Shown: positions 785-64,000 of the stretch, piece after piece
How positions within the stretch are numbered: position 1 is the first letter of the stretch
Layout of the letters: every line of letters starts with the position of its first letter
Source: Parcubacteria group bacterium M6-OD1-1
Lineage (GTDB): Bacteria; Patescibacteriota; Minisyncoccia; GWC2-36-17; M10-OD1-4
Direction: 5' to 3'
DNA: 64,000 nucleotides
Assembly: GCA_003056085.1 (NCBI GenBank)
Contig: LSNK01000001.1
Coordinates: 8,481-72,480 of the forward strand
Notes under the pieces: model-generated
Told to the model about the DNA's origin: nothing
Databases searched by the model: none
The model's input: the letters and a program-made list of their open reading frames with translations, nothing else
Translations under genes and position numbers: made by a program

Positions 785-794
785 AGGATAAGGA

Positions 795-1100
795 AATTTT
801 GGTTTTGCGCGGAGCGGAGGACGAATGGAGGCAAGCGGAGTGTGTGCGCTTGCGCGCACACGGAGTTTGCCGAAGTAAGGACGGAGCGACCCCCGAGGCA
901 CGGTGGAGTTGGCATTATCACGCGCTCCGAGCGTGAGATTAGGTTCAGAGCTACCACGCCGCGTGGCGCGTGCGAGTTATTAATCGCTCTGCGATTGTTG
1001 TTCAAAAAAGGTTCGAGCAAAGGATACAATCTCAATCAGGTGACTGTGTTACGTGGGGAGTTGGCGGTTGCGACGATGACTAATAACAGTTTACGACATC
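795..1100 (+). ncRNA. Candidate structured RNA of unknown class (GC-rich island in an AT-rich genome; strand uncertain)
   Basis: About 58% GC over ~300 nt, with many local hairpins (GTGTGCGCTTGCGCGCACAC; CGCGCTCCGAGCG; CCACGCCGCGTGG). It ends at a strong intrinsic terminator. The overlapping ORFs (842-1105 +, 724-1035 -) are Arg/Gly-rich and look like GC artefacts. Confidence 0.35.
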
Positions 1101-1105
1101 AATAA

Positions 1106-1139
1106 AAAGCTCTGTTTTATATAATCAGAGCTTTTTTCT
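1106..1139. terminator. Bidirectional rho-independent terminator (AGCTCTG..CAGAGCT + T-run, A-run on the other side)
   Basis: Perfect 7-bp stem flanked by A- and T-runs. It serves the plus-strand GC-rich RNA and the minus-strand gene ending at 1125. Confidence 0.8.
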
Positions 1140-1979: not shown

Positions 1980-2235
1980 AATATTGGATAATATAATAAA
2001 ATTATTTATATATTATATCATAAATCACACAATCCCTCCGCATTGTGTCGGAATCTGTCTTTTGACGAATTTTTGTTTCGTAACGCGCCTGCGGCGCGGT
2101 CGCGCTTCGCGCGAAAGGGGCTGATTCTGCAACGATTTGCCACGCTTTGCGTGGCAAAAAAGAAATGTTTTGGTTTTGGATTTGGAAGTTCGAACCAATC
2201 TTTTTTAGAAAATCCCGAAAGGATTCGGGATTTTC

Positions 2236-2640
2236 TTGCAAAGCGATAATTTTAATAATATTTTGACTTTTAGAAATATGGAAAAAGAAAATCAAGCCAA
2301 AAAGTTTTTTATCTACGCTCGCAAGTCAACGGACAACGAGGATAGACAAGTTCGGAGTATTGGCGACCAAATTGCTGAATTGCGGGAATTGGCGGAAAAA
2401 GAAAATTTGGAAGTTGTTGACTTGCTTGTTGAAAAACAAACCGCCAAGAGTCCGGAGCGTCCTGTTTTCGCCGAGATGTTGAATCGGATAGAAGCGGGCG
2501 AAGCGTCGGGAATTTTAGCATGGCACCCCGACAGATTAGCTCGCAATTCCGTTGATGGCGGACAAATTATTTATCTTGTTGATACTGGTGTTATTCGCGA
2601 GCTAAAATTCCCAACTTTTGGTATTATTGTGAAGGTTTTT
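2236..2640 (+). pseudogene. Serine recombinase/resolvase, N-terminal catalytic-domain fragment (truncated)
   Basis: FFIYARKSTDNEDRQVRSIGDQ...GILAWHPDRLARN matches the serine recombinase catalytic motifs (YxRxSt, DRLxRN). Homology stops after ~125 aa, and the frame then runs antisense through the neighbouring hydrolase gene. Confidence 0.7.
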
Positions 2641-3203
2641 GGCTCATCGGCATTATTAAAAATTCTTTTTACATCATCGGGAGTAATAAGTGTATCTTGT
2701 TCACCAGCAAATAAAACAATCGAGGCTGTTATTTTTGCAACATCTTCAACAACATTGTATTGTGTTCTGTCCTCTACATGCGAGAAAGGTACACGAAACT
2801 CTCGTTTTTTATCTCTGTTGCTTGGCAAATCGCGAGTAGATACACTCACGCCAATTTCTTTCCATTCTCTTTCTCTCTTTGGTGTCATTGATTCGTCCGA
2901 TGATGGCATAATGCCAAGCACTTTTGAAATTCGGTTATCACGCGCTGCATACAAAAGCGAAACCATGCCACCACGACTATGTCCGCCAAGCAAAATGTCT
3001 GTATATTCGCTTTGGGTTAGCGTATATTCAAGTACACTTTTTATATCGGAAAGATATTGCGTAATTGTATAATCAGTAATATCGCCATCACTATCCAAAA
3101 CGCCAGTTGGATCAAAGCGCACCGAAGTATATCCATGCTTAGTTAATTCATTTGCTAGTTCCGCCAATCCGACATAGTCTTTTGAGTCCAAAAGCCCGGA
3201 CAA
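2571..3203 (-). CDS. Alpha/beta-fold hydrolase (GHSRGG nucleophile elbow); the N-terminal 32 codons sit in another frame up to the ATG at 3296-3298 (frameshift in a T4 run, plus-strand A-run at 3190-3193)
   Basis: The ORF as given starts at TTG. The upstream frame reads MNITKDFIKGTKGNLSVAIHYPETKTEKLAILCPGF and joins LDSKDYVGLAELANELTKHGY if one T is added; LAILCPGFLDSKD is the typical HGF oxyanion segment. Confidence 0.75.
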   Translation of the reverse strand: MSGLLDSKDYVGLAELANELTKHGYTSVRFDPTGVLDSDGDITDYTITQYLSDIKSVLEYTLTQSEYTDILLGGHSRGGMVSLLYAARDNRISKVLGIMPSSDESMTPKREREWKEIGVSVSTRDLPSNRDKKREFRVPFSHVEDRTQYNVVEDVAKITASIVLFAGEQDTLITPDDVKRIFNNADEPKTFTIIPKVGNFSSRITPVSTR

Positions 3204-3309
3204 AGTATCGCCAGTTTTTCCGTTTTTGTTTCTGGGTAATGTATCGCAACAGAAAGATTGCCTTTTGTTCCTTTTATAAAATCTTTTGTGATGTTCATAT
3301 TGAAATTGT

Positions 3310-3909
3310 TTACTTTGTAATTTGCTCTATCAACTCTGGAAGCTCTTCAACTTGGAAGTGTCCGCTATCCTCAAAAATGTGCTTTTGTGCTCTTAACAAC
3401 TCTTCCGCGTATGCCTCAAAATCTCCGAAGTCAACAACATCGTCATCTTTTGAATGATACAAGTGTATTTCCGAAACTTGCTTTTCTATATTTTCAAGTG
3501 TGCCCGTCAATACAAAACTTGAACGCTTGATACAACTCCTATCGCCAAACGGAGCGGCGAGCAAATGCAACGACTTTATTTTTCTCAGGTATGTATTCTC
3601 TGCAAGATACTTTACAAGAAATACACCACCGAGAGAGATGCCAACAAGAACAACATCATCGTCAATATACTGCGTATATTTCTCAAACCAAATCTTCCAC
3701 TCGTTATATTTTGCATTCCAAGCACACGGCATTTGCGGTTTTATAAGTTGGTAATTTTCACCGAGATCTTCTTCAAGAGATTGACTCCATTTTTTAGGTG
3801 GCTCGTCATTCGGGTCACTTGGTTCAGTAGACTTAAGAAAATCCAAATATGCCTCGTTATTTTCCCAAGACTCACCACCGTGTATTAAAATTACTTGTTG
3901 TTTTTTCAT
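3310..3909 (-). CDS. Alpha/beta hydrolase, YdeN/RBBP9-like serine hydrolase family
   Basis: VILIHGG...W...VLVGISLGG pattern. Confidence 0.75.
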   Translation of the reverse strand: MKKQQVILIHGGESWENNEAYLDFLKSTEPSDPNDEPPKKWSQSLEEDLGENYQLIKPQMPCAWNAKYNEWKIWFEKYTQYIDDDVVLVGISLGGVFLVKYLAENTYLRKIKSLHLLAAPFGDRSCIKRSSFVLTGTLENIEKQVSEIHLYHSKDDDVVDFGDFEAYAEELLRAQKHIFEDSGHFQVEELPELIEQITK

Positions 3910-3913
3910 ATTT

Positions 3914-4123
3914 TTATTTCGTTAAATCTCCAACACTAACTCCAAGCGCACTCGCAACCTTTTCCATTGTGCTAATTGTAAGATTTTGTTTACCATTCTC
4001 AACATTACTGATATATGCTCTATCTAAATCTAACGCTCGGCAAATGTCGCCTTGCGACATTCCTTTTTCTAAGCGTATCTTTTTCATATTGTCTCCAAAT
4101 TTTTTTGCTGTATTTTGACTCAT
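3914..4123 (-). CDS. XRE-family HTH transcriptional regulator
   Basis: MKKIRLEKGMSQGDICRALDLDRAYISNVENGKQN is an HTH_3 motif. Confidence 0.85.
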   Translation of the reverse strand: MSQNTAKKFGDNMKKIRLEKGMSQGDICRALDLDRAYISNVENGKQNLTISTMEKVASALGVSVGDLTK

Positions 4124-4198
4124 GTTTTATCTAAAAGTTATCAACTTTGGTATTTTAACATACCATTATGTTATCACTCAATAGTAAGTTTCAATGTG

Positions 4199-4288
4199 CG
4201 GAGGGAACAGGATTTGAACCTGCGGTAGGCGTAAACCTACACATCCTTTCCAAGGATGCGCCTTAAACCACTCAGCCATCCCTCCAAA
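4199..4288 (-). tRNA. tRNA-Ser (anticodon GGA), long variable arm
   Basis: Reverse complement GGAGGGATGGCTGAGTGGTTTAAGGCGCATCCTTGGAAAGGATG...GGTTCAAATCCTGTTCCCTCCG folds as a class II tRNA with a 7-bp acceptor stem. Confidence 0.9.
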
Positions 4289-4331
4289 TTTGAAATTAAT
4301 TTTTATTTCGTCCTTGGAGAAAATCTTACTA

Positions 4332-4946
4332 TCATACGGACTTATATGTCAACATCTGCACAAACGCAAAAGCAACGGCGATGTAAAGAATATATTGAGC
4401 GGTTACAAGAAGCATTGAAATTGGAAATATCATATAAATAAACAAAATGCTAACACCTACAGATTGAAAAATCATTTTTACTTTTCCGAATTTTTCTGAC
4501 TGAACCGTAACACCTTGATATCTTTTTTTGTAATAAGCTCCTAAAACTATAATCAACTCTATAAGTATTATAGCAAACGCCAACCAAATGCTTAAAAACT
4601 TTGGTATTAAAACAACTGCCGTTGTTCCTATTAAAAGCTTATCTGCCAATGGATCAAAAAGTTTACCCCAATTTGTCACTTTATTTTGCGTCCTTGCCAA
4701 AGCCCCGTCCAACGCATCTGAAAATGCAGATACAATAAACAAAATAACGCCCAAAATATATTCCTCTCCGACTAAAAGCAGTAAAACAAAAGGAATAGAT
4801 AAAAAACGAAATATAGTAAGATGATTTGGAGTAACCCAAGACGGCAAAAATCTCAAAAAGACAAAAGCTAAAAATTTATCTGACTTTGTAACCTTTTTGG
4901 CTTTTTGATATGTGTAGTCTTCTCCTGTTGTGTTTTCTAAAAACAT
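4332..4946 (-). CDS. pgsA: CDP-alcohol phosphatidyltransferase (phosphatidylglycerophosphate synthase-like)
   Basis: DALDGALAR...G...DPLADK motif; multiple TM segments. Confidence 0.8.
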   Translation of the reverse strand: MFLENTTGEDYTYQKAKKVTKSDKFLAFVFLRFLPSWVTPNHLTIFRFLSIPFVLLLLVGEEYILGVILFIVSAFSDALDGALARTQNKVTNWGKLFDPLADKLLIGTTAVVLIPKFLSIWLAFAIILIELIIVLGAYYKKRYQGVTVQSEKFGKVKMIFQSVGVSILFIYMIFPISMLLVTAQYILYIAVAFAFVQMLTYKSV

Positions 4947-4996
4947 GTTTTGTTAGATTATAAATTATAGGTGTTAGGTTATAGGAAATATTATTT

Positions 4997-5908
4997 CTAT
5001 CTATCCATATCTTGTAAAGCCTTGATGCGTTCTTCCATAGGAGGGTGCGTCATAAAAAGCTTTCCCAACTTTGCTTTAAACCCCTTTTCGCGAAATGGAT
5101 TTGAAATATACATATGCGCTGTTGCGTGACTTGCTTTTTTCATCTCTCCCGGATAACTTGAGATTTTTTTAAGCGCGCTTGCAAGTCCGTCCGGATAACG
5201 CGTCATTAAAGCCCCTGACGCATCTGCTAAAAATTCTCTTTTTCTTGATATTGCAAGGTGAATCAAACTTGCGGCAATCGGCGCAAGTATAGCCATAACA
5301 ATACCCGCAACAAGAAGTATTAACTGAAGTTTTCCGTCTCCTCCGTTGTTGTTTCTTCTGCCTCCTCCAAACCAAAATGTATAACGCAAAAACATATCGG
5401 ATAAAATAGCGATAAACCCAACCAAAACGACAGAAATTGTTGAAACTAATATGTCTCTGTTTTTAACATGAGAAAGCTCATGAGCCAAAACTCCTTCAAG
5501 CTCTGACTTTTCAAGCCTTTCTAACAACCCTGAGGTCACGGCAACAGCCGCGTGTTCTGGGTCGCGTCCGGTTGCAAACGCATTTGGCGCAGGGTCGTTT
5601 ATCACATAAAGTTTTGGCATCGGAAGACCTGTTGCTATCGTTAAATTTTCAACAAGATTATACAATTCTCTGTGTGTTTTTGCATCAACTTGTTTTGCTC
5701 CTGACATTTTTATAACTATTTTGTCGGAGTTCCAATAAGAAAAAATATTCATAGCCAATGCAAAAACCACTGCAATATATAAAATAGAGGGGTTTCCCAA
5801 AATCTGCGCAAAAACCCAACCAACTAAAATAACAAAAACGAAAAACAGACTCATAATGAGCCAAGTTTTTCTCATATTCAATGATTCATAGTTATATGCT
5901 GTTGCCAT
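4997..5908 (-). CDS. htpX: Zinc metalloprotease HtpX (M48)
   Basis: HELSHVKNRD HEXXH motif; TM helices; full-length similarity. Confidence 0.9.
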   Translation of the reverse strand: MATAYNYESLNMRKTWLIMSLFFVFVILVGWVFAQILGNPSILYIAVVFALAMNIFSYWNSDKIVIKMSGAKQVDAKTHRELYNLVENLTIATGLPMPKLYVINDPAPNAFATGRDPEHAAVAVTSGLLERLEKSELEGVLAHELSHVKNRDILVSTISVVLVGFIAILSDMFLRYTFWFGGGRRNNNGGDGKLQLILLVAGIVMAILAPIAASLIHLAISRKREFLADASGALMTRYPDGLASALKKISSYPGEMKKASHATAHMYISNPFREKGFKAKLGKLFMTHPPMEERIKALQDMDR

Positions 5909-43740: not shown

Positions 43741-44169
43741 CTTGTTTTCTTCGTACGAAACAAATTTTAAATGTCCTTGTTTTTTTTCTTTGATCACTAA
43801 ATACAGTAAAGTTAACCTAAGGATAACCCTTAAATAACAATGGAAAAGTTACTTCCTTCTCTTACATTTTTCTGCGATTGGCTTATTAGTATTGCTCGCC
43901 TGAACACTTCACAGTGCTTACAGCTGCAACCTATCAACGTGATAGTCTTTCACGGGCCTATAGGATAAATCCAACGAGACCTAATCTTGGGTTGTGCTTC
44001 GAGTTTAGATGCTTTCAACTCTTATCACGACCGAACTTAGCTACCCAGCAATGCCCTTGGCAGGACAACTGGTACACCAGAGGTTCGTCCACTCCGGTCC
44101 TCTCGTACTAGGAGCAGCTTCCCTCAAGTCTCTACGCCTACAGCAGATAGAGAACCAACCTGTCTTACG

Positions 44170-44668
44170 CAAATGTAGCTACTAAAAATTTATTCAGTAA
44201 CGCCGCCATTACTGGCGGGATCGGACTATATCTTCATCCATCTATTTTAGATGGAGGCTAACGTTTAGTCTCTACGGGTAGTTATGAATTTTATTGAGGA
44301 GCCAACGATATTGTTGTTGGCTCTACTTAGGGTAGGAACATAGCTAAACATATTCCACATTGTGGTTTCTGCAAACGCTCATGTTCAGCACATCGGCATA
44401 TCCCAGCTATTTATCCCGTGCGTCCGCGGGATCCTTCGGGCCCCGCCTCAAGTGTGCCGGCGTGTTAATTCACACCGCTTGTCTTAGAGAATAGATATCC
44501 TCAATAAAATTCATAACCTTCCCTCGGTATTGTCCATGTTATACAACATTAGGATTTCACCGATATAAGTTAGCTTCTCATACAAAATCACTTTTGTATG
44601 CCGCCGTATATGATGTCAAACCTCGGATTCAGACTGTAAAACATCCTTTCTTTTAAAAAAGGTGCTTT
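44170..44668 (-). mobile_element. Group I intron without ORF in 23S rRNA at the E. coli U2593/C2594 equivalent
   Basis: Exon junction GGGTTCAGACCGT | ...~499 nt... G | CGTAAGACAGGTTGG aligns to GGGUUUAGAACGU|CGUGAGACAGUUCGG. The 5' exon ends in U and the intron ends in G. Confidence 0.65.
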
Positions 44669-44737
44669 ACGGTCTGAACCCAGCTCGCGTACCGCTTTAA
44701 TTGGCGAACAGCCAAACCCTTGGAAGCTTCTCCACCT

Positions 44738-44768
<31 letters not shown>

Positions 44769-44804
44769 GAACCTTGCCGTCGATATGAACTCTTAGGCAA
44801 GACC

Positions 44805-44841
<37 letters not shown>

Positions 44842-45330
44842 TTCGCACTTTCTACAAAGTTACGTCGGATCACTAAGTCCTGCTTTCGCAACTGCGCGAC
44901 TTGTTAGTCTTGCAGTAAAGCCGGCTTATGCCTTTACACTATCAGTCCGATTTCCATCCGGACCTAGCCGACCTTAATGAACGCCTCCGTTACCATTTGG
45001 GAGGCTAGCGCCCCACTAAAACTGTCTACCAGCCACTGTCCCCTTAAGGTTTTACCTTAAAAGTTAGTATTGCAATTATAAGAGAGTGGTATTTCACTGA
45101 CGACTCCATGTCACCCGAAAGCGACACTTCAAAGTCTCCCACCTATGCTACGCAATTAAAACAACAATACAATAACAAGCAACAGTAAAGCTCCCGGGGT
45201 CTTTCTGTCTAGCTGCAGGAAGAGGGCATCTTCACCCCCACTGTAATTTCACCGAGTGATTCGTTGAGACAGTTCCCAAGTCGTTACGCCATTCGTGCAG
45301 GTCGGAATTTACCCGACAAGGAATTTCGCT

Positions 45331-46072
45331 CGATCTTTGTTACTGATTCTACCTAAATAGAATTGGTGTAGTCATTTCTGCTACACTCTCTATGTCGCCA
45401 TAGAGTCCGGACTATATCATCACGCTTTTTTACAGCGCGCCTGGCGTATAGTCTCTGAGGATTCTAAAAATCTGGATTGTTTTTTTCGATTCATTAACTC
45501 TATTTTTTTTGCTATTTTCTTCATTCCTTTCATGGAAAGATGTTCTTTTTTCGTCATTATTTCCATTATTTCAGCAAAAATTTTGAAATCTTTTCTTTTT
45601 GCTGTTTTTAAAGAATTACTTCTGAAAAACGGAATTATTTTTTCATTTAAATCATCCATAGATCTTACACAAAATCTTAAAAGATTTTCTTTATGATCAT
45701 CATATCGATTATTTTTAAAAATTTTTCCGCAATTAAAATAGTCTTTAAATAAAGTTAAAGCATCTAAGCTTTTCTCCCCTTGAGTTATTACAAACTCAGG
45801 GAAAACTTGCCATCCAAGTTTGGAAGTTTTGTTTTTTATAATACTAACAGAGAAACAACCTTCTCCATCAGTAAAACCAATTATCCAACCTATAATTTTT
45901 AGCCTTTCCTGCTGATTGTCTGCACTGGATACATTTTCACTATAATAGTTTTTCATATCTATGGAATAATTATACCATAGATATTTTTCTATTATTAGTA
46001 GTACCAGATACTACAGGGTTTTACCCACAGGTGTTCCAGCATATGGCCAGGTTTTACTAAGGCAAGAAATTC
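45331..46072 (-). mobile_element. Group I intron in 23S rRNA at the E. coli U1931/A1932 equivalent (helix 69-71 region), carrying a LAGLIDADG homing-endonuclease gene
   Basis: Exon junction ...TAACTATAATCGTTCTAAGGT | ~742 nt ...AAAGATCG | AGCGAAATTCCTTGTCGGG aligns to CUAAGGU|AGCGAAAUUCC. It follows the U ... G rule. Confidence 0.75.
45420..45956 (-). CDS. LAGLIDADG homing endonuclease (single-motif, I-CreI-like)
   Basis: IIGWIIGFTDGEGCF LAGLIDADG motif; 178 aa; located inside the 23S intron. Confidence 0.85.
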   Translation of the reverse strand: MKNYYSENVSSADNQQERLKIIGWIIGFTDGEGCFSVSIIKNKTSKLGWQVFPEFVITQGEKSLDALTLFKDYFNCGKIFKNNRYDDHKENLLRFCVRSMDDLNEKIIPFFRSNSLKTAKRKDFKIFAEIMEIMTKKEHLSMKGMKKIAKKIELMNRKKQSRFLESSETIRQARCKKA

Positions 46073-47844
46073 ACCTTAGAACGATTATAGTTATCGCTGA
46101 CGTTCACCGGCGCTTCGGGCGTTAGCAGTATAATAAATTATACCACCTTCACCGTTAACGTTCCGGCACTGGTCAGGCGTCACCCCCTATACATCCTCTT
46201 ACGAGTTAGCAGAGAGCTGTGTTTTTGGTAAACAGTCGCCTGGGATACTTTCGCTGCGGCCTTAACTGAAAAACTGGATTTTGAGGGGAAGTGTACTCTT
46301 ACGCTTCCCGGATTTTAAAAATGGTCGGAAAGGATTACGCAGACATACTGCATATTTTGGGGTATTTAATCCCAAAACAGATATATCATTTTCGGTAATC
46401 CTCACCGTTTAAGCTTTACTCAAAATCCAGCTTCCCAGCAAGGCAAGCCTTATTCCGAAGTTACGGCTGCTTTTTTGCCGAGTTCCTTAACGAACTTTCA
46501 CTCGTTCACCTTGGTCTTCTCGACCTATCTACCTGTGTCGGTTTACGGTACGTGCACACTAAAAATATTCTTAGAAGTTTTTCTCGGTCGCCAGCTCATC
46601 TGAATTGGTGAAAAAACACCTCTTCTCAACTCTTGGAGTTGTGATTAAACACAGCTTTCCGGATTTACCTGGAAAACCTCCTTAAGCAAAGAACGTAAAT
46701 CCAATAATACGCTCAAACTACTTAGCCACGTCACTCCATCGATTTTTAGCATGGTGCAGGAATATTAACCTGCTGTCCATCAGCTCCGCCGTTCGGCATC
46801 GCCTTAGGTACGACTAACCCTTGGTTGATTGTCATTGCCAAGGAAACCTTAGATTTTCGGTGTACTGGGATCTCACCAGTATTGCGGTTACTTATGCCAA
46901 CATTCTCACTTCCTGACGCTCCAGCATGGCTCACGCCAACACCTTCACAGCAGACAGGAACGCTCCCCTACCACACCGCTGCAAAGCAGCGATATCCACA
47001 ATTTCGGTAGCATACTTTAGCCCCGGTACATTTTCGGTGCAAAATCTCTAAACTAGTGGGCTGTTACGCACTCTTTAAAGGATGGCTGCTTCTAAGCCAA
47101 CCTCCTAGCTGTTTAAGAAATTCTACCGCCTTTAATCACTTAGTATGCATTTTGGGACCTTAATTTGTGGTCTGGACTCTTTTCCTTTTGACCATGGAGC
47201 TTATCCCCCACAGTCTGACTCCTGAGCTATATTGAATGGAATTCGGAGTTTGATTGGGATAGACAGCTTGCGCCATTCTAACTCATCCAGTGCTCTACCT
47301 CCATTCATAAACACTCAAGGCTATACCTAAATATATTTCGGGGAGAACCAGCTATTACCAAGTTCGATTAGCTTTTCACTCCTTACCACAGGTCATCCGA
47401 ACGTGTTGCACAGCGTATCGGTTCGGGCCTCCCTTTGATTTTACTCAAAGTTCACCCTGCCCATAGTAAGCTCACTTGGCTTCGGGTTTTATGCATGCTG
47501 CATAGACTTGTCACTTAATGATTCTTTCTGCTGCAATTAATATTTTTCTACTACGCAAACCTCACCACTCGTCAGTGAATAATTTTATTCACTTCCTCGT
47601 GTTTCAGCTTGCTCATGACGAAAAATATCAATTTCGCTACGAAAAATCCATTAAGAGACAAGTCTATTTCGCCCTATTAAGACTTGGTTTCCCTACGCCT
47701 ACCCTCTTTGCGAGGTTAAACAGGCAACATACATAAACTCGTTGGCTCATTCTCCAAAAGGCACGCCGTCACCCTGATAAATCAGAGCTCCGACTAATTG
47801 TAAGTATATAGTTTCAGTTCTATTTCACTGCCCTCACCGGGCTA

Positions 47845-47885
<41 letters not shown>

Positions 47886-48654
47886 TAAAAAGTATTTAGC
47901 CTTGGGAGAGTAGTTCTCCCGGATTCCTACGGGGTTGTCTTTCCCCGCAGTACTTAGGTACAAATACTTAGAGTGTTTACTAATTTTCATTTACGGGACT
48001 ATTACCCTCTATGGTTGTCCTTTCCATGACAATTCAACTAAAAAGCAAAACTTGTTTTACTCTATTTTAAATAAATTTAAAAACGCATTTGCCCTGCAAC
48101 CCCTAATATGTGTAATAAATTATACTTATTAGGTTTAGGCTTCTACCGTTTCGCTCGCCGCTACTAAGGTAATAACTATTGTTCTCTTTTCCTCTGGTTA
48201 CTGAGATGTTTCACTTCACCAGGTTCGCTGCTTTTGATTTTAACTCAAAAGCTATCTTGATTTTACTCAAGATGGGTTCCCCCATTCGGAAATCTCCGGA
48301 TCAAAGGTTGCTGAGCACCTCACCGAAGCTTATCGCAGCCATGCCACGTCCTTCATCGCCTTTTTATGCCTAGGCATCCACTATATACCCTTATTCCGCA
48401 AAAAAATGAAAGTTAAGGAATAACTTTTCTTTTGTTTCACTCAATAAAATTTTCTCCTGCATAGAAGAAAAAATTATAATTTTTGTTATTGATAACCACC
48501 ATAAAATAAATCTTATTATTTTATAATGATTAAAGGAATAACTTTACTGTATTTAATTATCAAAGTTCTCACAGGCTCCAAACCTGTCCTAAAATAAATT
48601 TTGTTATGAAATTTATTTTAGGACAAACTTGGTACATTTTGTTTTGTATAAAGG

Positions 48655-57646: not shown

Positions 57647-57916
57647 TTACTGGTTTACAAAACTAAAATGTTCGGTTTTCTTGTTTTTGCGATGCGCCTT
57701 AATTACATTTCCTGAAAAATGAATCTTTTCGGAACGCAATGGTTGACACAATTGTAGTTCGCGCATTTTGGACACCTTCTCGCATTTAGAAGAGTCAAAC
57801 AATTGTTTACCGTTAAAAACTGGGCGAAACTCACTTTGTCTTTGCCCAGCATTAGCGAATGAAACAGTTAGCGACGCAACAAAAGAAAGAACAACAATAA
57901 AAAATATAGAACGCAT
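57647..57916 (-). CDS. Small secreted protein (signal peptide), hypothetical; higher GC
   Basis: MRSIFFIVVLSFVASLTVSFANA signal peptide. Confidence 0.5.
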   Translation of the reverse strand: MRSIFFIVVLSFVASLTVSFANAGQRQSEFRPVFNGKQLFDSSKCEKVSKMRELQLCQPLRSEKIHFSGNVIKAHRKNKKTEHFSFVNQ

Positions 57917-57981
57917 AAACTTCTCCTTTTAGGATTTGGATTGATTGGTGTTTTGTAAAATACAAAACACCAATATGACAA

Positions 57982-58998
57982 TTAATACAACTGGTTCCAG
58001 TCAAGCCACTGCCAGCTTGTCCATTGACCAAGATCGGGATCGTAGTAGGCAGTATTTCGCATTAGCGGGTTACTTCTATTTGTTAATTGGTTCACATATG
58101 CGGTACGCCCATCAGAAAATTTAAACTGCATCCAATGTATATCCCATGCAGAGTCAACACTCCATGGAGCCTCCTTTCCATATGTATTCACATTAACTTC
58201 TGCAAATCTCGGATCATTTTCAACTGCACGAATCATATCCAACCGAGCACGATCGTCTTGGTAGTTATTACGTGGTACTGGAATATGCAATGTGGAGCCA
58301 CTCACGTTTGAAGAAACAGCATATTGACGCCCATTCTCGAAAAAGTTATTGTCAATATCGTAGTAATAATACCACGATCCACCGTTTTCATATAACAAAT
58401 GATGCACGTCCATCCATCCCGCTTCAATTGCTTTCTTGAGCGACTTTCGTTCATTATTCCACTCAATATATGCTGTTGAAGATGGTGCGTTCCCAGACAT
58501 TGTGAATATCGTGTAGTATCCGCCAGTAGCAGCCGAGTACACAATTTCATCCCGACGATCATCAACAACAAGTGATGGAGCACGATACTTCAAAGCCTCA
58601 CTAACAGTCAGAGGGTTTTTGTAGGAATTCTCGGTAAGGCTAACTGAGCTATCCCATTGACCCTCCCAGTGCAAATGAGCAGGCCATCCTCCAGTGCCAC
58701 CAAGATAAGCAACCTCTTGCCCAGGATAAACCGTAACACCATTTCCTATTCCAGATGCAAAACCGTTCAAGTGAAAATATCCACTATCCCAAGTCTGTAC
58801 CCCATTTGAACCATGGGCATAAGGAAAGGAGTATCTGATATAAAGCTTATATCCGCCGGCAGAATTATTTACATCGTCTTTCCAGGAAACTTTCCCGTCA
58901 GCGATAGCAAATAAAGGATAGCCTGCATCTGTGTCTCCACCACAATTACCATTCCAATCCTCGCCCATATGATAGCCATAACCTACATTCAAATCCAT
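57982..58998 (-). CDS. M23 family metallopeptidase (LytM-like), secreted; the true start is probably the ATG at 59180-59182 after correcting a frameshift in the T8/A8 run at 59154-59161
   Basis: HxxxD...HLH motifs (YGYHMGEDWNG, GGWPAHLHWEG). The upstream frame gives MNIKSFFFFCIASLGVFLIGSANA signal peptide when the run is 7 nt. Confidence 0.8.
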   Translation of the reverse strand: MDLNVGYGYHMGEDWNGNCGGDTDAGYPLFAIADGKVSWKDDVNNSAGGYKLYIRYSFPYAHGSNGVQTWDSGYFHLNGFASGIGNGVTVYPGQEVAYLGGTGGWPAHLHWEGQWDSSVSLTENSYKNPLTVSEALKYRAPSLVVDDRRDEIVYSAATGGYYTIFTMSGNAPSSTAYIEWNNERKSLKKAIEAGWMDVHHLLYENGGSWYYYYDIDNNFFENGRQYAVSSNVSGSTLHIPVPRNNYQDDRARLDMIRAVENDPRFAEVNVNTYGKEAPWSVDSAWDIHWMQFKFSDGRTAYVNQLTNRSNPLMRNTAYYDPDLGQWTSWQWLDWNQLY

Positions 58999-59291
58999 AT
59001 GGTATTGTGCCTGGTAATATCCAGGGGTTCCGCAATTTGGACCTGTTTGATTTGGGTTATAGGGTAAAACAAAAGACCCAGCAGTTGGGGAGGTTGGCGT
59101 TATCGGACCTGCATTTGCAGAGCCAATTAAAAAAACGCCGAGGCTGGCGATACAAAAAAAAGAAGAATGATTTTATATTCATTCTATATCTCCTATATTG
59201 TTTATGTTAAAGTACAAGACCGATTGCCAATCAATCGGTCTTGAGATAATAACATAATAATTATACTTCTTGCAACGCTTTTAGTTGTGGA

Positions 59292-59951
59292 TTACTTTAT
59301 AAGACTGAAGGATAATAACATCTTTTCAAGAACGCTAGTTCTGTATTCATCTGTTGATGGCACATAAAAAGAAATTCTATAATTACCAACATCAAGAACA
59401 TATGTTTTTGATATCTCCCTCGTATCAGGATAAGGATAATGCTCATCCCACACTCCCAATTTAACATCAAAAATCAACCCACTAACTCCATCAACAACTA
59501 TCTCATTTCTTAGAACCTTATCTTTTAGATCTGCATCTTTTATAAAATCATCAAGAGTGGATTTTGATGAGAAAAAATAGACTCCTCCATCATCATTAGC
59601 ACCTTTTTTATCAGGAGGAATAACTACAAAAGGCTCTGAATCGTCATTAATAACCCAATCCCTTGGATAGTTGATTTCAAACCCAAACTCTTCATTTCTA
59701 TAAGTCTGCCAGTCGCTCGTATCAATAGTATTATTAGGAAAAGAAAGTTCTTTAAAATCGCCACCTATCATAGTTTCAGAAATCCGCTCAACTGGTTTAA
59801 AGTCTATTATTCCATATTCTTGTTGCTGTGGCGGACTAGTAATAACATTTGGATTTGTAGATTTTTTATTATCATCCTCAAGCAGGAATAATCCCAAAAT
59901 TCCAACAATCCCAATAAAAACAAGTATTAAAATAATATTTTTTATATTCAT
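59292..59951 (-). CDS. Hypothetical membrane-anchored/secreted protein
   Basis: N-terminal TM anchor. Confidence 0.55.
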   Translation of the reverse strand: MNIKNIILILVFIGIVGILGLFLLEDDNKKSTNPNVITSPPQQQEYGIIDFKPVERISETMIGGDFKELSFPNNTIDTSDWQTYRNEEFGFEINYPRDWVINDDSEPFVVIPPDKKGANDDGGVYFFSSKSTLDDFIKDADLKDKVLRNEIVVDGVSGLIFDVKLGVWDEHYPYPDTREISKTYVLDVGNYRISFYVPSTDEYRTSVLEKMLLSFSLIK

Positions 59952-60404
59952 TGCGTTTAATTTAGCATAAACTTATTCACAAAAGCAAATAGTACTAGCT
60001 ATTTTAACAATTGTTTCAAGTGTTAGGTTTTATTTAATTGCGGGCCCAGCAGGCTCCCGTTTTATCCAAGGGAATAAAGGTGTCAGGAACCTTTTTTAGA
60101 TATTACCCACCAATACTTTAACTATACCAGAATCAACTTAAAATAAAAACTCCATATTTAACTCTATAATTAATTATAGGTGAATAAAGGTGTTAAGAGT
60201 TAACGGGATCAGGAACCTTTTTTTACCAATCTATTATATTTTATATGTTACTCCCACGGCATATTCTAGTCAAACAAAAAAAGCCGACAACTTGCATTGT
60301 CGCCTGCCCTTTCTTTCGTTGCTCGTGTCGAAGCGAGGCACGCCCCAACCGAGTTTTATTTTAATTTTAGACTTTTTACACTTCGTTGAACTAATAAAAC
60401 ACCC

Positions 60405-60445
60405 AAAAAAACCCTTCCTTTACAAAGGAAGGGTTTTCAAAAAAA
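60405..60445. terminator. Bidirectional terminator (CCCTTCCTTTACAAAGGAAGGG flanked by A/T runs)
   Basis: Perfect palindrome immediately 3' of the gene ending at 60446. Confidence 0.7.
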
Positions 60446-61114
60446 TTACTTACCATTTACAGATTGACCTAATAAACGTTTATAGCTGTTGAAATCTTTA
60501 CTGTGAATAATATCAGCTTGAGGCAATACCTCTTTTTTATATGCTTCCTGTAGCCCTCTAATTCTGTTATCTACCTTATCATCTTTTCCATATTGATACT
60601 CAAAATTTGGATTATTACTAATCAAGAGTCTAGAGTTAGGATGCAAAATCAGAAAATGCATATCCTGTTCTTTCCAGTGGCGACTAGCTAACAAGTAAGT
60701 GCTGCCTTCTTTTAGTAGCCCCATATTATTTGACTCATCCTGTGCCCCATTTACTAAATTTAACCTTCCATTTTTATAACCTCCTTGATGTAATACTGTA
60801 ATACGCCCTACAATATCTCCTTTAATATTGTATTTTACCTCTGCTTCATATTTAGTAAATGGGATTCCATCCAAGACAACATATTCTGTCTGTTTAATGA
60901 TTTTTGCCACATAAACATTATGGGAAGCGCCAACTAATTCTTCATCAACAGAAAAATCTCCAATGTTCACAAATGACATGCCATAGCTCACACCTGGTAA
61001 TTTAATTAAATTGGCTCTTAGAGACAGCGCCATCGCTATGGATAAAGCAAGAATTATAGCAATTACTGCCACCCAACTCCAATTAATATTTGTCTTCTTG
61101 ATAATATTCATCAT
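60446..61114 (-). CDS. Hypothetical membrane-anchored protein
   Basis: N-terminal TM anchor; no motif recognised. Confidence 0.55.
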   Translation of the reverse strand: MMNIIKKTNINWSWVAVIAIILALSIAMALSLRANLIKLPGVSYGMSFVNIGDFSVDEELVGASHNVYVAKIIKQTEYVVLDGIPFTKYEAEVKYNIKGDIVGRITVLHQGGYKNGRLNLVNGAQDESNNMGLLKEGSTYLLASRHWKEQDMHFLILHPNSRLLISNNPNFEYQYGKDDKVDNRIRGLQEAYKKEVLPQADIIHSKDFNSYKRLLGQSVNGK

Positions 61115-61144
61115 ATTTTAATGTAAACACTTAATATTTATAAA

Positions 61145-61672
61145 GTTAATTCCAAAGATGATTATAATCACAAGCATCAGCAGAGCTCGGTGTTACAGTG
61201 GTAAGATATTGCCATGGATCCATTACATAGTCATTGCCAGTTCTATGATCTAAGCCTAATGCACATGCCCTAACTCATGAGAAACTATGTGAGCACGATT
61301 ACCATACGAACCTCCATCCATATAATACTTATTCAGTGTTAGGCTGTCAGAACCAAAATAATCATAATCATAAGCGCCCCACCAACCCAAATAATAATTA
61401 TCTACATCGCCTAAAGTTAAATCTTGATAAGTATATATATTATCTGGCGCTATATTAACAGCCCCAAGATTATTCCATGCATCAACAGAATCACCCCATT
61501 CCCATGAGTACTGAGTAGATCCTCCCCATCTAATTTCTCCAGCATCAACAGCATTTTCTCCAGCTGGTGTCAGATAATGAGTACCACAAGGGTAGTGTGC
61601 CTCCGCAATACTGCCTGCCATTACCAAGCCTACAAACAAAAATACTATAAATAACTTATTTAAATAAATCAT
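61145..61672 (-). pseudogene. Snapalysin-like (M7) / metzincin secreted zinc protease, frameshifted near 61256-61262
   Basis: Signal peptide, then ...RAHIVSHELGHVH* in one frame and GLDHRTGNDYVMDPWQYLTTVTPSSADACDYNHLWN in the next. Joined, they give HELGHVLGLDH, the HEXXHXXGXXH metzincin motif. Confidence 0.6.
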
Positions 61673-61949
61673 ATTTAATATAAAATTTAAATTATTAATA
61701 CAATTTAATAATAATAATTTTTATTAAATAAGTAAAAAATTTATGTGGATAATTTTTTAAAATATAAATAAAATAAAGTTTAAGTTTTTTATCTACACTC
61801 TCATACCACAACAGTTAATAGTTCCTATAATCTATACGCTGTATTACAACAAAACTGCGCTCAACAATCCAATGGCTTTTTCTAATAGCCGTCTTTTTAG
61901 ACAATCCAAGTCATTGGATTGAGTGCACCAAAGGCGGCTATTTGAGTTT

Positions 61950-62165
61950 TTTACATATTCAGACTCGGCGGAAACAAAACCGAAAATTTCCTTTCATTTT
62001 TTTTGCGGCTCCCCCACACCCCCGCCGAAAGCATAATCGGCAAGGAAATTTTCGGTTTTGTCCGCCCGAGCTTTACGAAGGGCGGGTGAGGCGCGCAGAG
62101 TTAGGAAATCGGAGCGGAAGATATTGTCTGGAGCTACATCAAAACTCGAAGCGCTCCGAATTCGT
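61950..62165 (-). ncRNA. Candidate structured RNA / att-associated structured region (GC-rich island), unknown class
   Basis: An 18-bp stem (AAAACCGAAAATTTCCTT / AAGGAAATTTTCGGTTTT), plus CCGCCC..GGGCGG and CGGAGCG..CGCTCCG stems. It lies adjacent to a tRNA-Trp 3' fragment. Confidence 0.3.
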
Positions 62166-62167
62166 TG

Positions 62168-62222
62168 TGGTGGGCCCGGCAGGACTTGAACCTGCAGTCC
62201 TGGTTTTGGAGACCAATTGGGG
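62168..62222 (-). other. tRNA-Trp 3' fragment (anticodon arm CCA + T-arm + acceptor 3' strand with encoded CCA), no 5' half
   Basis: Reverse complement TTGGTCTCCAAAACCAGGACTGCAGGTTCAAGTCCTGCCGGGCCCACCA. It shares GGTCTCCAAAACC with the intact tRNA-Trp 420 bp upstream. Confidence 0.6.
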
Positions 62223-62469
62223 CTGTTACTGAATATGCTTTCTTAGCAAAATTGATTTAATTTCAGACGAAAACGATAAAAATTGAAGAACTTATATTTT
62301 AATATAGGTGATGAAATTTTTATAGTTTGCAGGCGAAATTAAACAATTGTAGCAGAAATGATATTTAGTAATAGTCCCACTTACCAATTAACCGACGAGC
62401 CCTTAATTTAAAACATTGAAAAAACTTTGATTTTATTTGCTTTCCACATTTATTTTCGGCAAAACAAAA

Positions 62470-62616
62470 TCAAAATTCTTCTAAGATTTTTTCATAACAT
62501 CTTTTACAAAGATGAAACTTTATTACTTTATTGTCCTTGTCTGGAGGGCTCAACAAAATACCACCAAATTCATTTAGTACTTCATTGCACTTATCACAAA
62601 TAGGATCTATAGACAT
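62470..62616 (-). CDS. Small zinc-ribbon protein (48 aa, CxxC...CxxC)
   Basis: MSIDPICDKCNEVLNEFGGILLSPPDKDNKVIKFHLCKRCYEKILEEF. Confidence 0.5.
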   Translation of the reverse strand: MSIDPICDKCNEVLNEFGGILLSPPDKDNKVIKFHLCKRCYEKILEEF

Positions 62617-62641
62617 ATATGTACTGGATTAATTATTTTTG

Positions 62642-62712
62642 CGGGCCCTGAGGGAATCGAACCCCCGACCGAGGTTTTGGAGACCCCTATTATACCACTT
62701 AACTAAGAGCCC
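62642..62712 (-). tRNA. tRNA-Trp (anticodon CCA)
   Basis: GGGCTCTTAGTTAAGTGGTATAATAGGGGTCTCCAAAACCTCGGTCGGGGGTTCGATTCCCTCAGGGCCCG cloverleaf; CCA not encoded. Confidence 0.9.
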
Positions 62713-62775
62713 TAATCTGATATTATTTACAACTTTTATAAAGCAGACCCACTATTTATGCAGGTCTGCGTTTGA

Positions 62776-62934
62776 TTATTTCTTCTTTATTTCTTTATGA
62801 ACTTTGTGAGCTCTGCAAACCTTACAAAACTTTTTGTATTCCAACTTTCTTTGAACTGACTTTTTATTTTTTGTTGTCCAATAGTTGATGTTTTTGCAGT
62901 TGTCGCATTTCATCTTTATTAAGGTATCTTGTGA
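62776..62934 (-). CDS. rpmG: 50S ribosomal protein L33
   Basis: MSQDTLIKMKCDNCKNINYWTTKNKKSVQRKLEYKKFCKVCRAHKVHKEIKKK is the bL33 zinc-ribbon pattern. It lies between tRNA-Thr and tRNA-Trp, as in many bacteria. Confidence 0.85.
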   Translation of the reverse strand, partial: SQDTLIKMKCDNCKNINYWTTKNKKSVQRKLEYKKFCKVCRAHKVHKEIKKK

Positions 62935-62984
62935 CATATATTTAATCAGCTTTTAGCCTATTAGTTTTATTAATAAAATTTTGG

Positions 62985-63057
62985 AGCCGTTGTGCGGGAT
63001 TGAACCGCAGACCTCATCCTTACCATGGATGCGCTCTACCAACTGAGCTACAACGGC
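62985..63057 (-). tRNA. tRNA-Thr (anticodon GGT)
   Basis: GCCGTTGTAGCTCAGTTGGTAGAGCGCATCCATGGTAAGGATGAGGTCTGCGGTTCAATCCCGCACAACGGCT. Confidence 0.9.
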
Positions 63058-63295
63058 AAAATAGAAAAATATTCTAACTTACCCCCATTAGTAAGGAACT
63101 TCCAAATAGTAATATATTATTTAGATTTTTTCAATAGCAAGGCATAAAAAGAAAACACAAGGCTTATTTTAGACTTTTTAAATATCTTTTTGAAAATTAA
63201 AAAATACTTGACAAAATACATCTACTGGTGTATAGTTGAAGAACAGTTAGTTGAGAAATTATATTCAAATCATTATCCAAAGGAGGATTTTAGAA

Positions 63296-63648
63296 TGATT
63301 AAATTAGCAATTGGCAATAAAGAAAAAACTGTACTTTTAACAATCACCGCAATTCTACTACTTGCCCTATCGGCATACATCGGAGAACGTTTCCAGCCCT
63401 ACAAAATCACCAAAAATATCGGCTCTTATGCCGTTAAGCAGATTGCAACAGCAGACACGCACAAAAAAGCGCATGCCAGAGCATCAACCGAACGACATAT
63501 CAAATATGTCGTGAAAAAAGGCGACACTGTCTGGAATATATCCAAAAAATATAAAGTTCATCCGGAACTGTTGAAGTTTGCCAATCATCTGGGGAACAAC
63601 TCCAAAATCACCATTGGGCAAAGGCTCACAATTCCAAAAAACAGCTGA
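63296..63648 (+). CDS. LysM domain protein with N-terminal TM anchor
   Basis: AAAGGAGG RBS; C-terminal YVVKKGDTVWNISKKYKVHPELLKFANHLGNNSKITIGQRLTIP LysM motif. Confidence 0.75.
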
Positions 63649-63667
63649 GAGCAACCCTCAGCAAATT

Positions 63668-63701
63668 ACCCCGAAATCATCTGATTTCGGGGTTTTTTAT
63701 T
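63668..63701 (+). terminator. Rho-independent terminator (CCCCGAAATCATCTGATTTCGGGG + T7)
   Basis: Perfect stem plus a T-run after the LysM gene. Confidence 0.8.
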
Positions 63702-63831
63702 TAATATCAACCACATTTTCAATAACTCAACGGATTGAGTTATTGACCATATTTATTAAAAACGAGCTTCAATAAAAAAACCACTTTAAAACAAAAGCCC
63801 TAAGTGTTAACACTCGGGGTTTTTGTTTTTT

Positions 63832-63899
63832 TGGTGCGTGGTGAGGGACTCGAACCCCCGTAGGCATAAAGCCATCCCGTTATTTTAAAATTTACAGAG
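63832..63899 (-). other. Partial duplicate of the tRNA-Tyr 3' portion (anticodon-loop remnant CTGTAAAT through acceptor, with encoded CCA)
   Basis: A 38-nt identical block GGCTTTATGCCTACGGGGGTTCGAGTCCCTCACCACGC lies directly downstream of the intact gene. Confidence 0.6.
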
Positions 63900-63983
63900 T
63901 GCGTGGTGAGGGACTCGAACCCCCGTAGGCATAAAGCCGTCAGATTTACAGTCTGATGCGTTTGACCACTCCGCCAACCACGC
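63900..63983 (-). tRNA. tRNA-Tyr (anticodon GTA), long variable arm
   Basis: GCGTGGTTGGCGGAGTGGTCAAACGCATCAGACTGTAAATCTGACGGCTTTATGCCTACGGGGGTTCGAGTCCCTCACCACGCA. Confidence 0.85.
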
Positions 63984-64000
63984 ACTCTGGAAACTTTAAT

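Follow-up and report, generated by a model that had tools for sequence, protein, structure and literature searches.

Bacterial miniature inverted-repeat and palindromic elements, e.g., the Rickettsia palindromic elements, ERIC and Correia, form the class of small mobile DNA to which the element reported here is best compared. Two further kinds of insertion are known from structural RNA genes: ribosomal RNA (rRNA) intervening sequences, which are removed by RNase III, and the group I introns of Patescibacteria transfer RNA (tRNA) genes, which occupy the anticodon loop (e.g., 35/36), possess a catalytic core and are self-splicing. We know of no precedent for an RNase III-type intervening insert in a bacterial tRNA. 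tRNA genes may also harbour attachment (att) sites, and a crossover in an anticodon-loop core shared by host and element would give two chimeric genes, one with the host 5' part and the element 3' part and the other the reverse. Here, we investigated a tRNA gene cluster in a 64,000-nucleotide stretch of DNA (the window) from Parcubacteria group bacterium M6-OD1-1 (GenBank assembly GCA_003056085.1, contig LSNK01000001.1, positions 8,481 to 72,480), in which a second tRNA-Trp gene, called Trp#2 below, is split in its D arm by a 162-bp foldback element. An initial annotation, made from the sequence alone, had interpreted partial copies of tRNA-Trp and tRNA-Tyr in this cluster as integrase footprints. 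It is partly supported: the sequence features that it described are real, the integrase interpretation fails for the Trp copy, and the Tyr copy may have one of several causes.

The segment at 62168-62222 (-) comprises a Trp anticodon arm, a T arm and the 3' strand of the acceptor stem with A73, and it ends in ACCA. Its presence was correctly annotated at the outset and is backed by a partial Rfam tRNA match (62178-62229, 18.2 bits), as is the statement that its identity to the intact upstream gene (Trp#1) is confined to the anticodon core, for the only stretch common to Trp#1 and this segment in an exact-repeat scan is 13 nt long. The segment does not, however, start at the anticodon loop, as it has a 5' partner: AAGGGCTCGTCGGTTAATTGGTAAG, at 62380-62404 (-), 162 nt upstream of the 3' segment, is the 5' part of a tRNA. 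This 5' part (62380-62402) provides the acceptor strand GGGCUCG, U8 and C9, the D-stem strand GGUU and the D loop AAUUGGUA, followed by AG, and the 3' part (62168-62217) provides A26, the anticodon arm (anticodon CCA), the variable loop, the T arm, the second acceptor strand, A73 and CCA. By direct reading, GGGCUCG pairs with CGGGCCC at 7/7 positions with one G-U; the D loop AAUUGGUA is canonical (A14/G18G19/A21), the anticodon loop reads CUCCAAA and the T arm GCAGG-UUCAAGU-CCUGC. The intact tRNA-Trp of a related locus, L015 (L-numbers denote related loci recovered through homologs of the window's proteins; genes lie on the minus strand unless stated otherwise), is identical to the 5' part at 22/24 positions and to the 3' part at 39/40. 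As it stands, Trp#2 is called by neither ARAGORN nor Rfam, but after in-silico deletion of the insert ARAGORN calls a tRNA-Trp from 62402 to the CCA. These comparisons show the stretch 62168-62402 (-) to be one tRNA-Trp(CCA) gene interrupted in the D arm and not an orphan 3' half. Nucleotides 1-23 of Trp#2 lie at 62380-62402 and nucleotides 26-76 at 62168-62217, with the 162-bp foldback in the 3' strand of the D stem. The fragment is thus part of a known kind of RNA gene, an interrupted tRNA-Trp, which is an outcome that the initial annotation had itself named as refuting its interpretation. What lies between it and Trp#1 is not only a gene for a 48-aa protein, as was claimed, but also the 5' part and the 162-bp palindromic insert. 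As tRNA finders miss Trp#2, they would report an orphan half, from which an integration site would be wrongly inferred. Two other explanations of a split tRNA were considered and rejected. A permuted or two-piece tmRNA would not fit, since there is no 5' acceptor strand downstream and no G3-U70, and ARAGORN finds no tmRNA; an archaeal intron or split tRNA would need a bulge-helix-bulge, which could not be drawn at either junction, and the organism is bacterial.

Trp#2 appears to be inactive, having lost the 3' strand of its D stem and exchanged G73 for A73, and the organism would rely on the intact Trp#1 upstream. With the foldback bounded by its inverted repeats, direct reading leaves D-stem positions 24-25 missing, and other boundaries leave one surplus base between the D and anticodon stems; no in-silico deletion variant yields a canonical D stem or the L015-like AACC-A-CUGGU. 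G73 is the major Trp identity determinant in bacteria (PMC9976931). The discriminator of Trp#2 is A73, whereas G73 is found in every related tRNA-Trp examined, of both sequence types described below (L015, L016, L018, L019, L021, L022, L044, L057-L060, L063 and L064), so that Trp#2 possesses neither this identity element nor an uninterrupted cloverleaf. We consider it likely that Trp#2 is a recently inactivated tRNA-Trp and that the locus as a whole is genome scar tissue rather than a working system. The stretch from tRNA-Tyr through rpmG and tRNA-Trp to pyr_redox would then be a hot spot for small mobile DNA, which inserted into tRNA genes or next to them and left behind decayed extra tRNA copies.

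The foldback element (62218-62379) is 162 bp long and AT-rich, has the terminal inverted repeats TGGGACTATTACTAAATAT... / ...ATATTCAGTAACAGCCCCA and lies in the 3' strand of the D stem. It matches its own reverse complement with 73% identity over 172 nt and folds as one long hairpin; the inverted repeats extend to both ends, and no open reading frame (ORF) of at least 40 aa is found inside. A homolog of 165 bp is present in L063 and aligns end to end with it (blastn 71.6% over 204 nt, E 4e-17). An nhmmer profile made of these two inserts finds both, at E 1e-42 and 1e-38, which is circular and not independent evidence. The L063 element comes after nucleotide 21 of a tRNA-Trp copy, i.e., it occupies the same D-arm position within about a base, and the copy that bears it is of the Trp#1 sequence type and not of the Trp#2 type. 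That interrupted copy ends soon after the anticodon loop; a duplicated promoter region comes next, and after it an intact tRNA-Trp. The L063 foldback clearly lies in a dead tRNA-Trp copy. In the layout of L063:461-1062, an 89-nt direct repeat (promoter and first 21 nt of tRNA-Trp) flanks the 165-bp foldback, and next come the intact tRNA-Trp, a terminator, a 150-nt element that opens with an anti-T-loop segment, and a 30-nt repeat (tRNA 3' end and trailer). Upstream of tRNA-Trp, both L063 and L064 also carry an anticodon-arm-like relic, ACGGCCTCCAAAAC. The hairpins of the two foldback copies are more stable antisense than sense to the tRNA (-58.0 vs -37.2 and -60.7 vs -48.1 kcal/mol), and since this holds for both, it argues against a structure selected within the tRNA transcript. 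No third copy was found by a profile search of the 64-kb window and 64 loci, and the conserved 23-nt foldback motif had no exact match in viral contigs. Homology to a palindromic insert of the window's 23S rRNA gene (47495-47670), to which nhmmer gave a weak match, was rejected, because the similarity is not significant (alignment score 26; shuffles 18.3 +/- 2.6, max 27).

We infer that the foldback is a small non-coding mobile element that prefers the D-arm site of tRNA-Trp; the same position in two genomes suggests a site preference. Like the miniature inverted-repeat elements, it is about 160 bp long, non-coding and AT-rich, with terminal inverted repeats and a single hairpin, it lies within a structural-RNA gene, and a second, diverged copy exists in another genome. 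Unlike them, its two copies share one tRNA-Trp D-arm position, no partner transposase is known, 2-4 tRNA nucleotides were apparently lost at the site, and in L063 the insertion is accompanied by the 89-nt duplication of the promoter and tRNA 5' end that restores an intact gene. The resemblance to the group I introns of Patescibacteria tRNA genes lies in the phylum and in the fact that Trp#2 is interrupted and missed by standard tools; the Trp#2 insert, however, is in the D arm, is a simple AT-rich hairpin, and its excision gives no canonical tRNA. With rRNA intervening sequences it has in common that a long hairpin is inserted into a structural RNA, and the palindromic insert of the window's 23S gene is of similar size; the differences are the stronger antisense hairpin and the lack of significant similarity to that 23S insert.

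To place these features, we compared the window with related loci. Ribosomal protein L33 as an anchor gave 43 loci, almost all from Patescibacteria metagenome-assembled genomes, and homologs of pyr_redox later added L063 and L064. L015, L062, L063 and L064, which are four other species, served as reference relatives and from pyr_redox onward have the same gene order as the window (pyr_redox - SOD - DUF4015); the upstream part, tRNA - rpmG - tRNA-Trp, is shown by L015, L063 and L064, and the L062 locus is without tRNA. The products of the four relatives are 55-57% (pyr_redox), 68-73% (DUF4015) and 77-81% (GAPDH) identical to those of the window, and SOD is 60-67% identical in L015, L063 and L064 and 42% in L062, so that by protein identity all four appear about equally distant from the window. 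The same locus was found in six further independent contigs at 98-100% identity (seven entries, L001-L006 and L014, of which L014 is the L001 record); sequencing runs from which this DNA comes include SRR14803397 and SRR6439372. An assembly artefact is ruled out by the Trp arrangement in L001-L006 and the Tyr junction in L001.

Trp#1 (tRNA-Trp(CCA), 62642-62712 (-); ARAGORN, Rfam 59.6 bits; G73) is placed after rpmG, as is the single tRNA-Trp of L063 and of L064, which has the same acceptor stem; identity is 90% over 84 nt with L063 and 83% over 109 nt with L064. By position and sequence, Trp#1 is the syntenic ortholog of this single tRNA-Trp and is predicted to be the working gene. Both halves of Trp#1 match the L063/L064 genes and both halves of Trp#2 match the L015 type. 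Members of this clade of reduced genomes thus carry one or the other tRNA-Trp sequence type, L015 the one, L063 and L064 the other, and the window has both, one of them broken, a state that resembles a half-completed replacement of a tRNA gene. The idea that Trp#2 is the native gene, with L015 as the closest relative, was dropped after L063 and L064 showed the Trp#1 type to be resident. Since each Trp gene of the window is of a single type throughout, there is no chimera, and hence an anticodon-loop crossover did not happen. Neither is the encoded CCA telling. The nucleotides after the acceptor strand of Trp#2-type genes are GCCG in L015, GCCA in L016 and GCCT in L019 and L022, and the L015 tRNA-Tyr carries CCA; as CC follows the discriminator in intact genes of the same type in relatives, an encoded CC(A) is no sign of foreign origin.

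The tRNA-Tyr part of the locus has a different form. tRNA-Tyr(GTA) lies at 63900-63983 (-) (ARAGORN; Rfam tRNA 62.2 bits), and its discriminator A is followed by CTC and not by CCA. The partial copy at 63832-63873 (-) runs from the variable arm to the discriminator plus CCA. In the exact-repeat scan, 63834-63873 equals 63899-63938, a perfect direct repeat of 40 nt, after which CA completes the CCA; the copy that the initial annotation described directly after the gene is therefore a direct repeat ending in CCA, as stated, but of 40 and not 38 nt. The two copies are separated by 25 nt, and the partial one is without the 3' strand of the anticodon stem. The spacer CTCTGTAAATTTTAAAATAACGGGAT (63874-63899, -), read directly, contains the anticodon-loop-like CTGTAAAT and ATTTTAAAATAA, the latter a 12-mer that equals part of the 5' leader of the L064 tRNA-Tyr. 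Among AT-rich 27-mers of the window, 0.3% share at least 12 nt with the spacer (p ~0.003), a post hoc value that serves as a lead only. To judge by its sequence, the ATTTTAAAATAA match hints at a decayed second tRNA-Tyr copy rather than an att site. On the other side of the copy, at 63786-63830 (-), a hairpin with a U-run, AAAAACCCCGAGTGTTAACACTTAGGGCTTTTGTTTT, was read by eye as a likely terminator; a simple consensus terminator scan does not list it.

The comparison with related genomes, which had been proposed as a check, showed that L064 lacks the Tyr repeat: there, tRNA-Tyr, 39 nt and tRNA-Thr follow each other as an empty site. The L064 tRNA-Tyr is 98.9% identical over 88 nt, and the 84-nt gene itself reads identical; an empty site with an identical tRNA-Tyr indicates that the duplication is specific to the window's lineage. 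The repeat opens about 0.8 kb of extra DNA, which includes a LysM gene on the other strand, and L001, an independent assembly of a 98%-identical strain, contains the same junction of first copy and spacer. The Tyr fragment may be the relic of a second, partial tRNA-Tyr copy made in this lineage only, and candidate routes to it are a local duplication with internal deletion or a nearly fully deleted insertion.

Beyond the dead Trp#2 lies a GC-rich structured region (61964-62167), in which a hairpin at 62105-62163 is neighboured by a long hairpin at 61964-62070 with about 27 Watson-Crick arm pairs. Its earlier description as GC-rich and highly structured is borne out by a GC content of 0.565 at 62001-62200, against about 0.34 elsewhere in the window, and by fold z values versus shuffles of -4.4 on the minus and -5.3 on the plus strand. 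The long arms of 61964-62070 contain no G-U pairs and hence give no strand clue, and the sole strain polymorphism in the region, at 62065, falls on a bulged G. Rfam gave no match at gathering thresholds and nothing relevant at E 10, and phages, plasmids and the related loci first collected contained nothing similar. These 200 nt are a structured element with no relative in the libraries searched. A second GC-rich stretch is situated at 620-1140 (+), with GC 0.61 at 801-1000, a fold z of only -1.9, no Rfam match and many CGGAG motifs; two tandem 49-nt repeats (636-735) precede it and a terminator lies at about 1100-1135. The 19-nt motif AAGGAAATTTT(C)GGTTTTG is common to this stretch and to both arms of the 61964-62070 hairpin. 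Homology of the GC-rich region to 740-1100 was rejected, as only this motif is shared. The interleaved stems at 61860-61945, between the GC-rich region and an AT-rich stretch upstream of a 138-aa gene, were found by direct reading and folding and match no family; in minimum-energy folds, the arrangement at 61862-61945 that had been called pseudoknot-like shows up only among alternative pairings.

Between the tRNA-Trp locus and pyr_redox, at 57647-61672 (-), there are five lineage-specific genes (ORFs of 138, 222, 219, 338 and 89 aa). This block is absent from that position in L015, L063 and L064, each of which has different DNA between tRNA-Trp and pyr_redox, and a defence-type island (RhuM, Fic, DUF2130, AAA_14/DUF4143, GmrSD-HNH) is found directly upstream of pyr_redox in L062 (L062:1-5968). 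The island and the differing DNA support an insertion hot spot. The 48-aa gene between Trp#1 and the 5' part of Trp#2 (62470-62616, -; a CxxC...CxxC protein) has a weak phrog_2999 match and no Pfam match. Its product has 22 homologs, of 56-77% identity, in unrelated neighbourhoods, among them a virus-like run of small genes, a place between transketolase halves and a genome labelled Aenigmatarchaeota. Small and free-floating in its behaviour, the gene was dropped as a synteny anchor because of these unrelated contexts.

Structured elements linked to tRNA genes were found in relatives, and the higher interest lies in these families. In 12 loci, from Saccharibacteria and other Patescibacteria, an element of 125-210 nt lies downstream of a tRNA-Tyr, tRNA-Leu(CAA) or tRNA-Trp, in most cases with a terminator in between. 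The covariance model R1 was built from 10 copies and then found two more (L019, L044); the L019 contig begins at the element, so that its upstream tRNA is not seen. The elements lie at L048:1298-1440, L055:1935-2060, L046:7765-7903, L056:7749-7887, L049:7602-7752, L022:3522-3655, L058:921-1127 and L019:77-211, and on the minus strand at L050:925-1048, L051:162-285, L047:731-877 and L044:4223-4349. Their core, GAAAGNCGGAG ... GAGUCGGGG ... UUGUGACC, forms a three-way junction. The 5' segment shows complementarity to the T loop and T stem of the preceding tRNA, and the 3' end of this tRNA is repeated over 13-19 nt at the 3' end of the element. In the ten aligned copies, 87% of cells pair versus 72% after shuffling, and the covariation score is 0.424 versus 0.175, neither value being reached by any of 500 shuffles; slid controls gave 29-55% pairing. 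The 5' segment forms 8-16 contiguous pairs with its own tRNA, which is the longest duplex in every row, with ties only for tRNAs of the same type and, for L063, the L044 tRNA-Trp; with most other tRNAs it forms 5-10 pairs, occasionally 11-12. In L022, the segment tracks an unusual T loop. R1 is thus a conserved, covarying, RNA-like structure with a guide-like segment that follows the neighbouring tRNA. It has no match in Rfam 15, and in one scan of viral contigs the core pattern matched 10 times, with none confirmed by the model. L063 carries an element of the same layout with a different core after its tRNA-Trp. Possible identities of R1 are a mobile element, a mimic of the tRNA top half or a regulator.

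A scan of 110 tRNA genes in related loci for partial copies found many beside intact genes; such copies, and GC-rich structured inserts as well, commonly occur near the tRNA genes of Patescibacteria. Further partial or degenerate copies accompany the tRNA-Tyr genes at L016 2507-2591, L017 3218-3303 and L045 3469-3553, the tRNA-Trp genes at L046 5503-5574 and L024 2971-3043, the tRNA-Leu at L046 7532-7721, and the tRNA-Leu genes of L048 and L050. They include 5' parts 40-640 nt upstream and second, degenerate copies of tRNA-Leu directly downstream.

The view that Trp#2 is a dead gene in a scarred locus has to face several observations. Of the stem differences between Trp#2 and L015, 5/5 keep pairing, that at 4:69 being double compensatory, and the T loop and anticodon loop are intact; such pairing-preserving substitutions and intact loops indicate that Trp#2 was under selection until recently, or still is. 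The acceptor stems of Trp#2 and Trp#1 are the same at 6/7 pairs, including the unusual U5-G68, which suggests co-evolution or gene conversion within the genome. The strains show no polymorphism in Trp#2, an argument of little weight, as diversity is low everywhere. The foldback is known in two copies only, both at tRNA sites, so that we infer its mobility; a target-site duplication cannot be defined, and both insertions might go back to a single old event instead of having arisen independently. Lastly, the scar reading accounts neither for the GC-rich region nor for how the Tyr repeat arose. If Trp#2 were indeed functional, its 162-nt hairpin would be cut from the transcript, as by RNase III, to give a spliced or two-piece tRNA-Trp with A73 and CCA. 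The pairing in all stems, the intact loops and the encoded CCA would suit such a gene, and the foldback, as one long hairpin, draws both parts of Trp#2 together. A precedent of a kind is offered by the window's single 23S rRNA gene, which holds the AT-rich palindromic insert of about 170 nt (47495-47670) that is necessarily tolerated or removed, and the RNA genes of Patescibacteria are unusually intron-rich (PMC13011429). However, excision from Trp#2 never restores a canonical D stem plus position 26, the discriminator is A73 instead of the G73 of all relatives, and the hairpin is 12-21 kcal/mol more stable antisense in both known copies. The L063 copy has no tRNA 3' part, so it is no intron there, and known Patescibacteria tRNA introns are located in the anticodon loop rather than the D arm. 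The Trp#2 insert has no group I core and no Rfam match at E 10 (a group I intron was rejected, as there was no Intron_gpI match at this threshold, though the same method finds the 23S intron), its similarity to the 23S insert is not significant, and an intact Trp#1 is already present. A working Trp#2 thus seems to us very unlikely, and we hold to the reading of an inactivated gene.

The other explanations concern where the extra copies and the inserted DNA came from. According to the initial annotation, both partial copies are attL/attR footprints left by tyrosine-integrase elements after crossover in the anticodon loop, the bodies of these elements having been lost. The form of the Tyr copy fits this, being a direct repeat that runs to the tRNA 3' end, is preceded by CTGTAAAT and keeps the CCA and the U-run hairpin; in comparison with L064, both insertions begin directly after a tRNA gene, repeats from the T loop to the 3' end bound small inserts in relatives, and one homolog of the 48-aa protein is encoded about 3 kb from a phage-integrase gene. 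The window thus resembles tRNA-gene att sites in having a direct repeat of a tRNA 3' portion beside the intact gene (the window Tyr copy, and in L063, L058 and Saccharibacteria the T-loop-to-end repeats) and lineage-specific DNA directly 3' of tRNA genes. It differs in that the partial copies adjoin the intact genes instead of the far end of the inserted DNA. The Tyr repeats lie 25 nt apart and enclose no element body, and the Tyr copy lacks the 3' strand of the anticodon stem. The Trp pair shares 13 nt only and contains no hybrid junction, and with its own 5' half and no chimeras the Trp part fails as a footprint. No repeat of either Trp 3' end was found at the far end of the 5-kb insertion or elsewhere in the window; the search for the tRNA-Tyr 3' end covered 1.5 kb on either side of the gene. 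The six ORFs scanned, at 57.6-63.7 kb, encode no integrase domain; the rest of the window was not scanned. Viral contigs gave no exact match to the single Trp#2 and the single tRNA-Tyr 3'-end patterns tried, and searches of phage and plasmid libraries with 61850-62420 returned ordinary tRNA-Trp matches only. We find this origin of both copies unlikely, and nothing at the locus needs a tyrosine integrase. What stands of the original idea is that tRNA genes serve as landing sites for mobile DNA, as the bounded inserts of relatives show; the Trp copy is no integrase footprint, and for the Tyr copy, whose repeat form agrees, the 25-nt distance and the scanned ORFs offer no support. A less remote alternative, towards which we remain doubtful, is that a single block of about 5 kb was acquired horizontally from a lineage having the other tRNA-Trp type and brought in Trp#2 together with the 48-aa gene, the GC-rich region and the five genes for secreted proteins, the tRNA-Trp having arrived broken or broken later. 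It is compatible with the scar reading and differs only on origin. In its favour, the DNA at 57.6-62.63 kb is missing between tRNA-Trp and pyr_redox in L015, L063 and L064, Trp#2 is of the L015 type and Trp#1 of the L063/L064 type, homologs of the 48-aa protein occur in unrelated contexts, and the 338-aa protein has weak PHROG matches to endolysin and metallo-endopeptidase and is M23-peptidase-like, its Pfam Peptidase_M23 match being below the cut-off. On the other hand, the relatives are equally distant by protein identity, so that either Trp type may be ancestral and no transfer is needed, the Trp#2 acceptor stem is like that of Trp#1 and not that of L015, and the block is without boundary repeats and, among the ORFs scanned, without a mobility gene. 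The GC-rich region has also been considered as a degenerate member of the elements described above, i.e., those with a T-arm-complementary segment, a three-way junction and a tRNA 3'-end repeat. It sits and sizes like the element after the same-type tRNA-Trp of L058 (about 204 vs 226 nt, directly 3'), with which it shares, in the same order, the motifs CAxCGAAT, CGGAGCG, GGCGGGG, GCAAAAAA, AGGAAATTT and TTTGT, and the local alignment with L058 reaches z = 3.5 with the tRNA excluded. Yet its score of 34 is below that of the best shuffle (36), and homology to the L058 and L063 elements was rejected, since the z values of 3.5 and 2.4 are not above the best shuffles. R1 finds nothing in the window with default filters, nor with filters off at 1-5000 and 61000-64000, and at 61850-62167 neither complementarity to a nearby tRNA T arm nor a tRNA 3'-end repeat exceeds the shuffled level. 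This membership is improbable, and we would give as little credence to the broader proposal that the partial tRNA copies and the GC-rich structure are local, decayed traces of a set of small non-coding elements, widespread in Patescibacteria, that use base-pairing to find tRNA genes. Should R1 and the foldback be mobile or regulatory elements guided by RNA or a single strand, with the GC-rich region as a diverged representative, this locus would open the way to a new class of tRNA-targeting elements.

The remaining genes of the cluster follow the order of the relatives. Both ARAGORN and Rfam place four tRNA genes in the window, three of them in the region studied and all three on the minus strand. 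tRNA-Thr(GGT) lies at 62982-63057 (-) in the gene order of L015, L063 and L064, and rpmG, for ribosomal protein L33, at 62776-62937 (-) (ORF; Pfam Ribosomal_L33 on the identical L005 product), its product being 87% identical to that of L063/L064 and 77% to that of L015. CCA follows none of tRNA-Tyr, tRNA-Thr and tRNA-Trp (Trp#1) in the sequence, in agreement with what was first reported for the intact Tyr and Trp genes. The missing secE-nusG after tRNA-Trp was also observed correctly, but it is nothing unusual: L015, L063 and L064 are likewise without it and continue with pyr_redox-SOD, hence its absence is normal for the clade.

A serine recombinase with a frameshift, about 58 kb away, was the sole recombinase noticed. 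Its ORF, 2236-3072 (+), matches the Resolvase N-terminal domain over the first ~112 residues (Pfam E 4e-16; PHROG integrase), and the remainder, without a domain match, is read as a frameshift. It is flanked by a small ORF judged by eye to be HTH (helix-turn-helix)-regulator-like (321-515, -) and by tRNA-Ser (4198-4285, -). This region, at the opposite end of the window, has the look of a decayed integrative element.

The window is AT-rich and encodes L33, and its 23S rRNA gene (43867-48404, -) fits the bacterial large-subunit model with 2267 bits, being 4.5 kb long with insertions; from this fit and the presence of L33 it follows that the organism is bacterial. Besides the palindromic insert of about 170 nt, the 23S gene contains a group I intron at 44202-44622 (Rfam 53.5 bits) and an AT-rich stretch at about 45400-46000 with an ORF nearby; the 16S gene is absent from the window. 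The public record CAZZML010000094.1 (L014/L001) is titled 'uncultured Roseivirgaceae bacterium'. Its content (L33, tRNA set, relatives) is Patescibacteria-like, and the title is probably a binning or labelling error.

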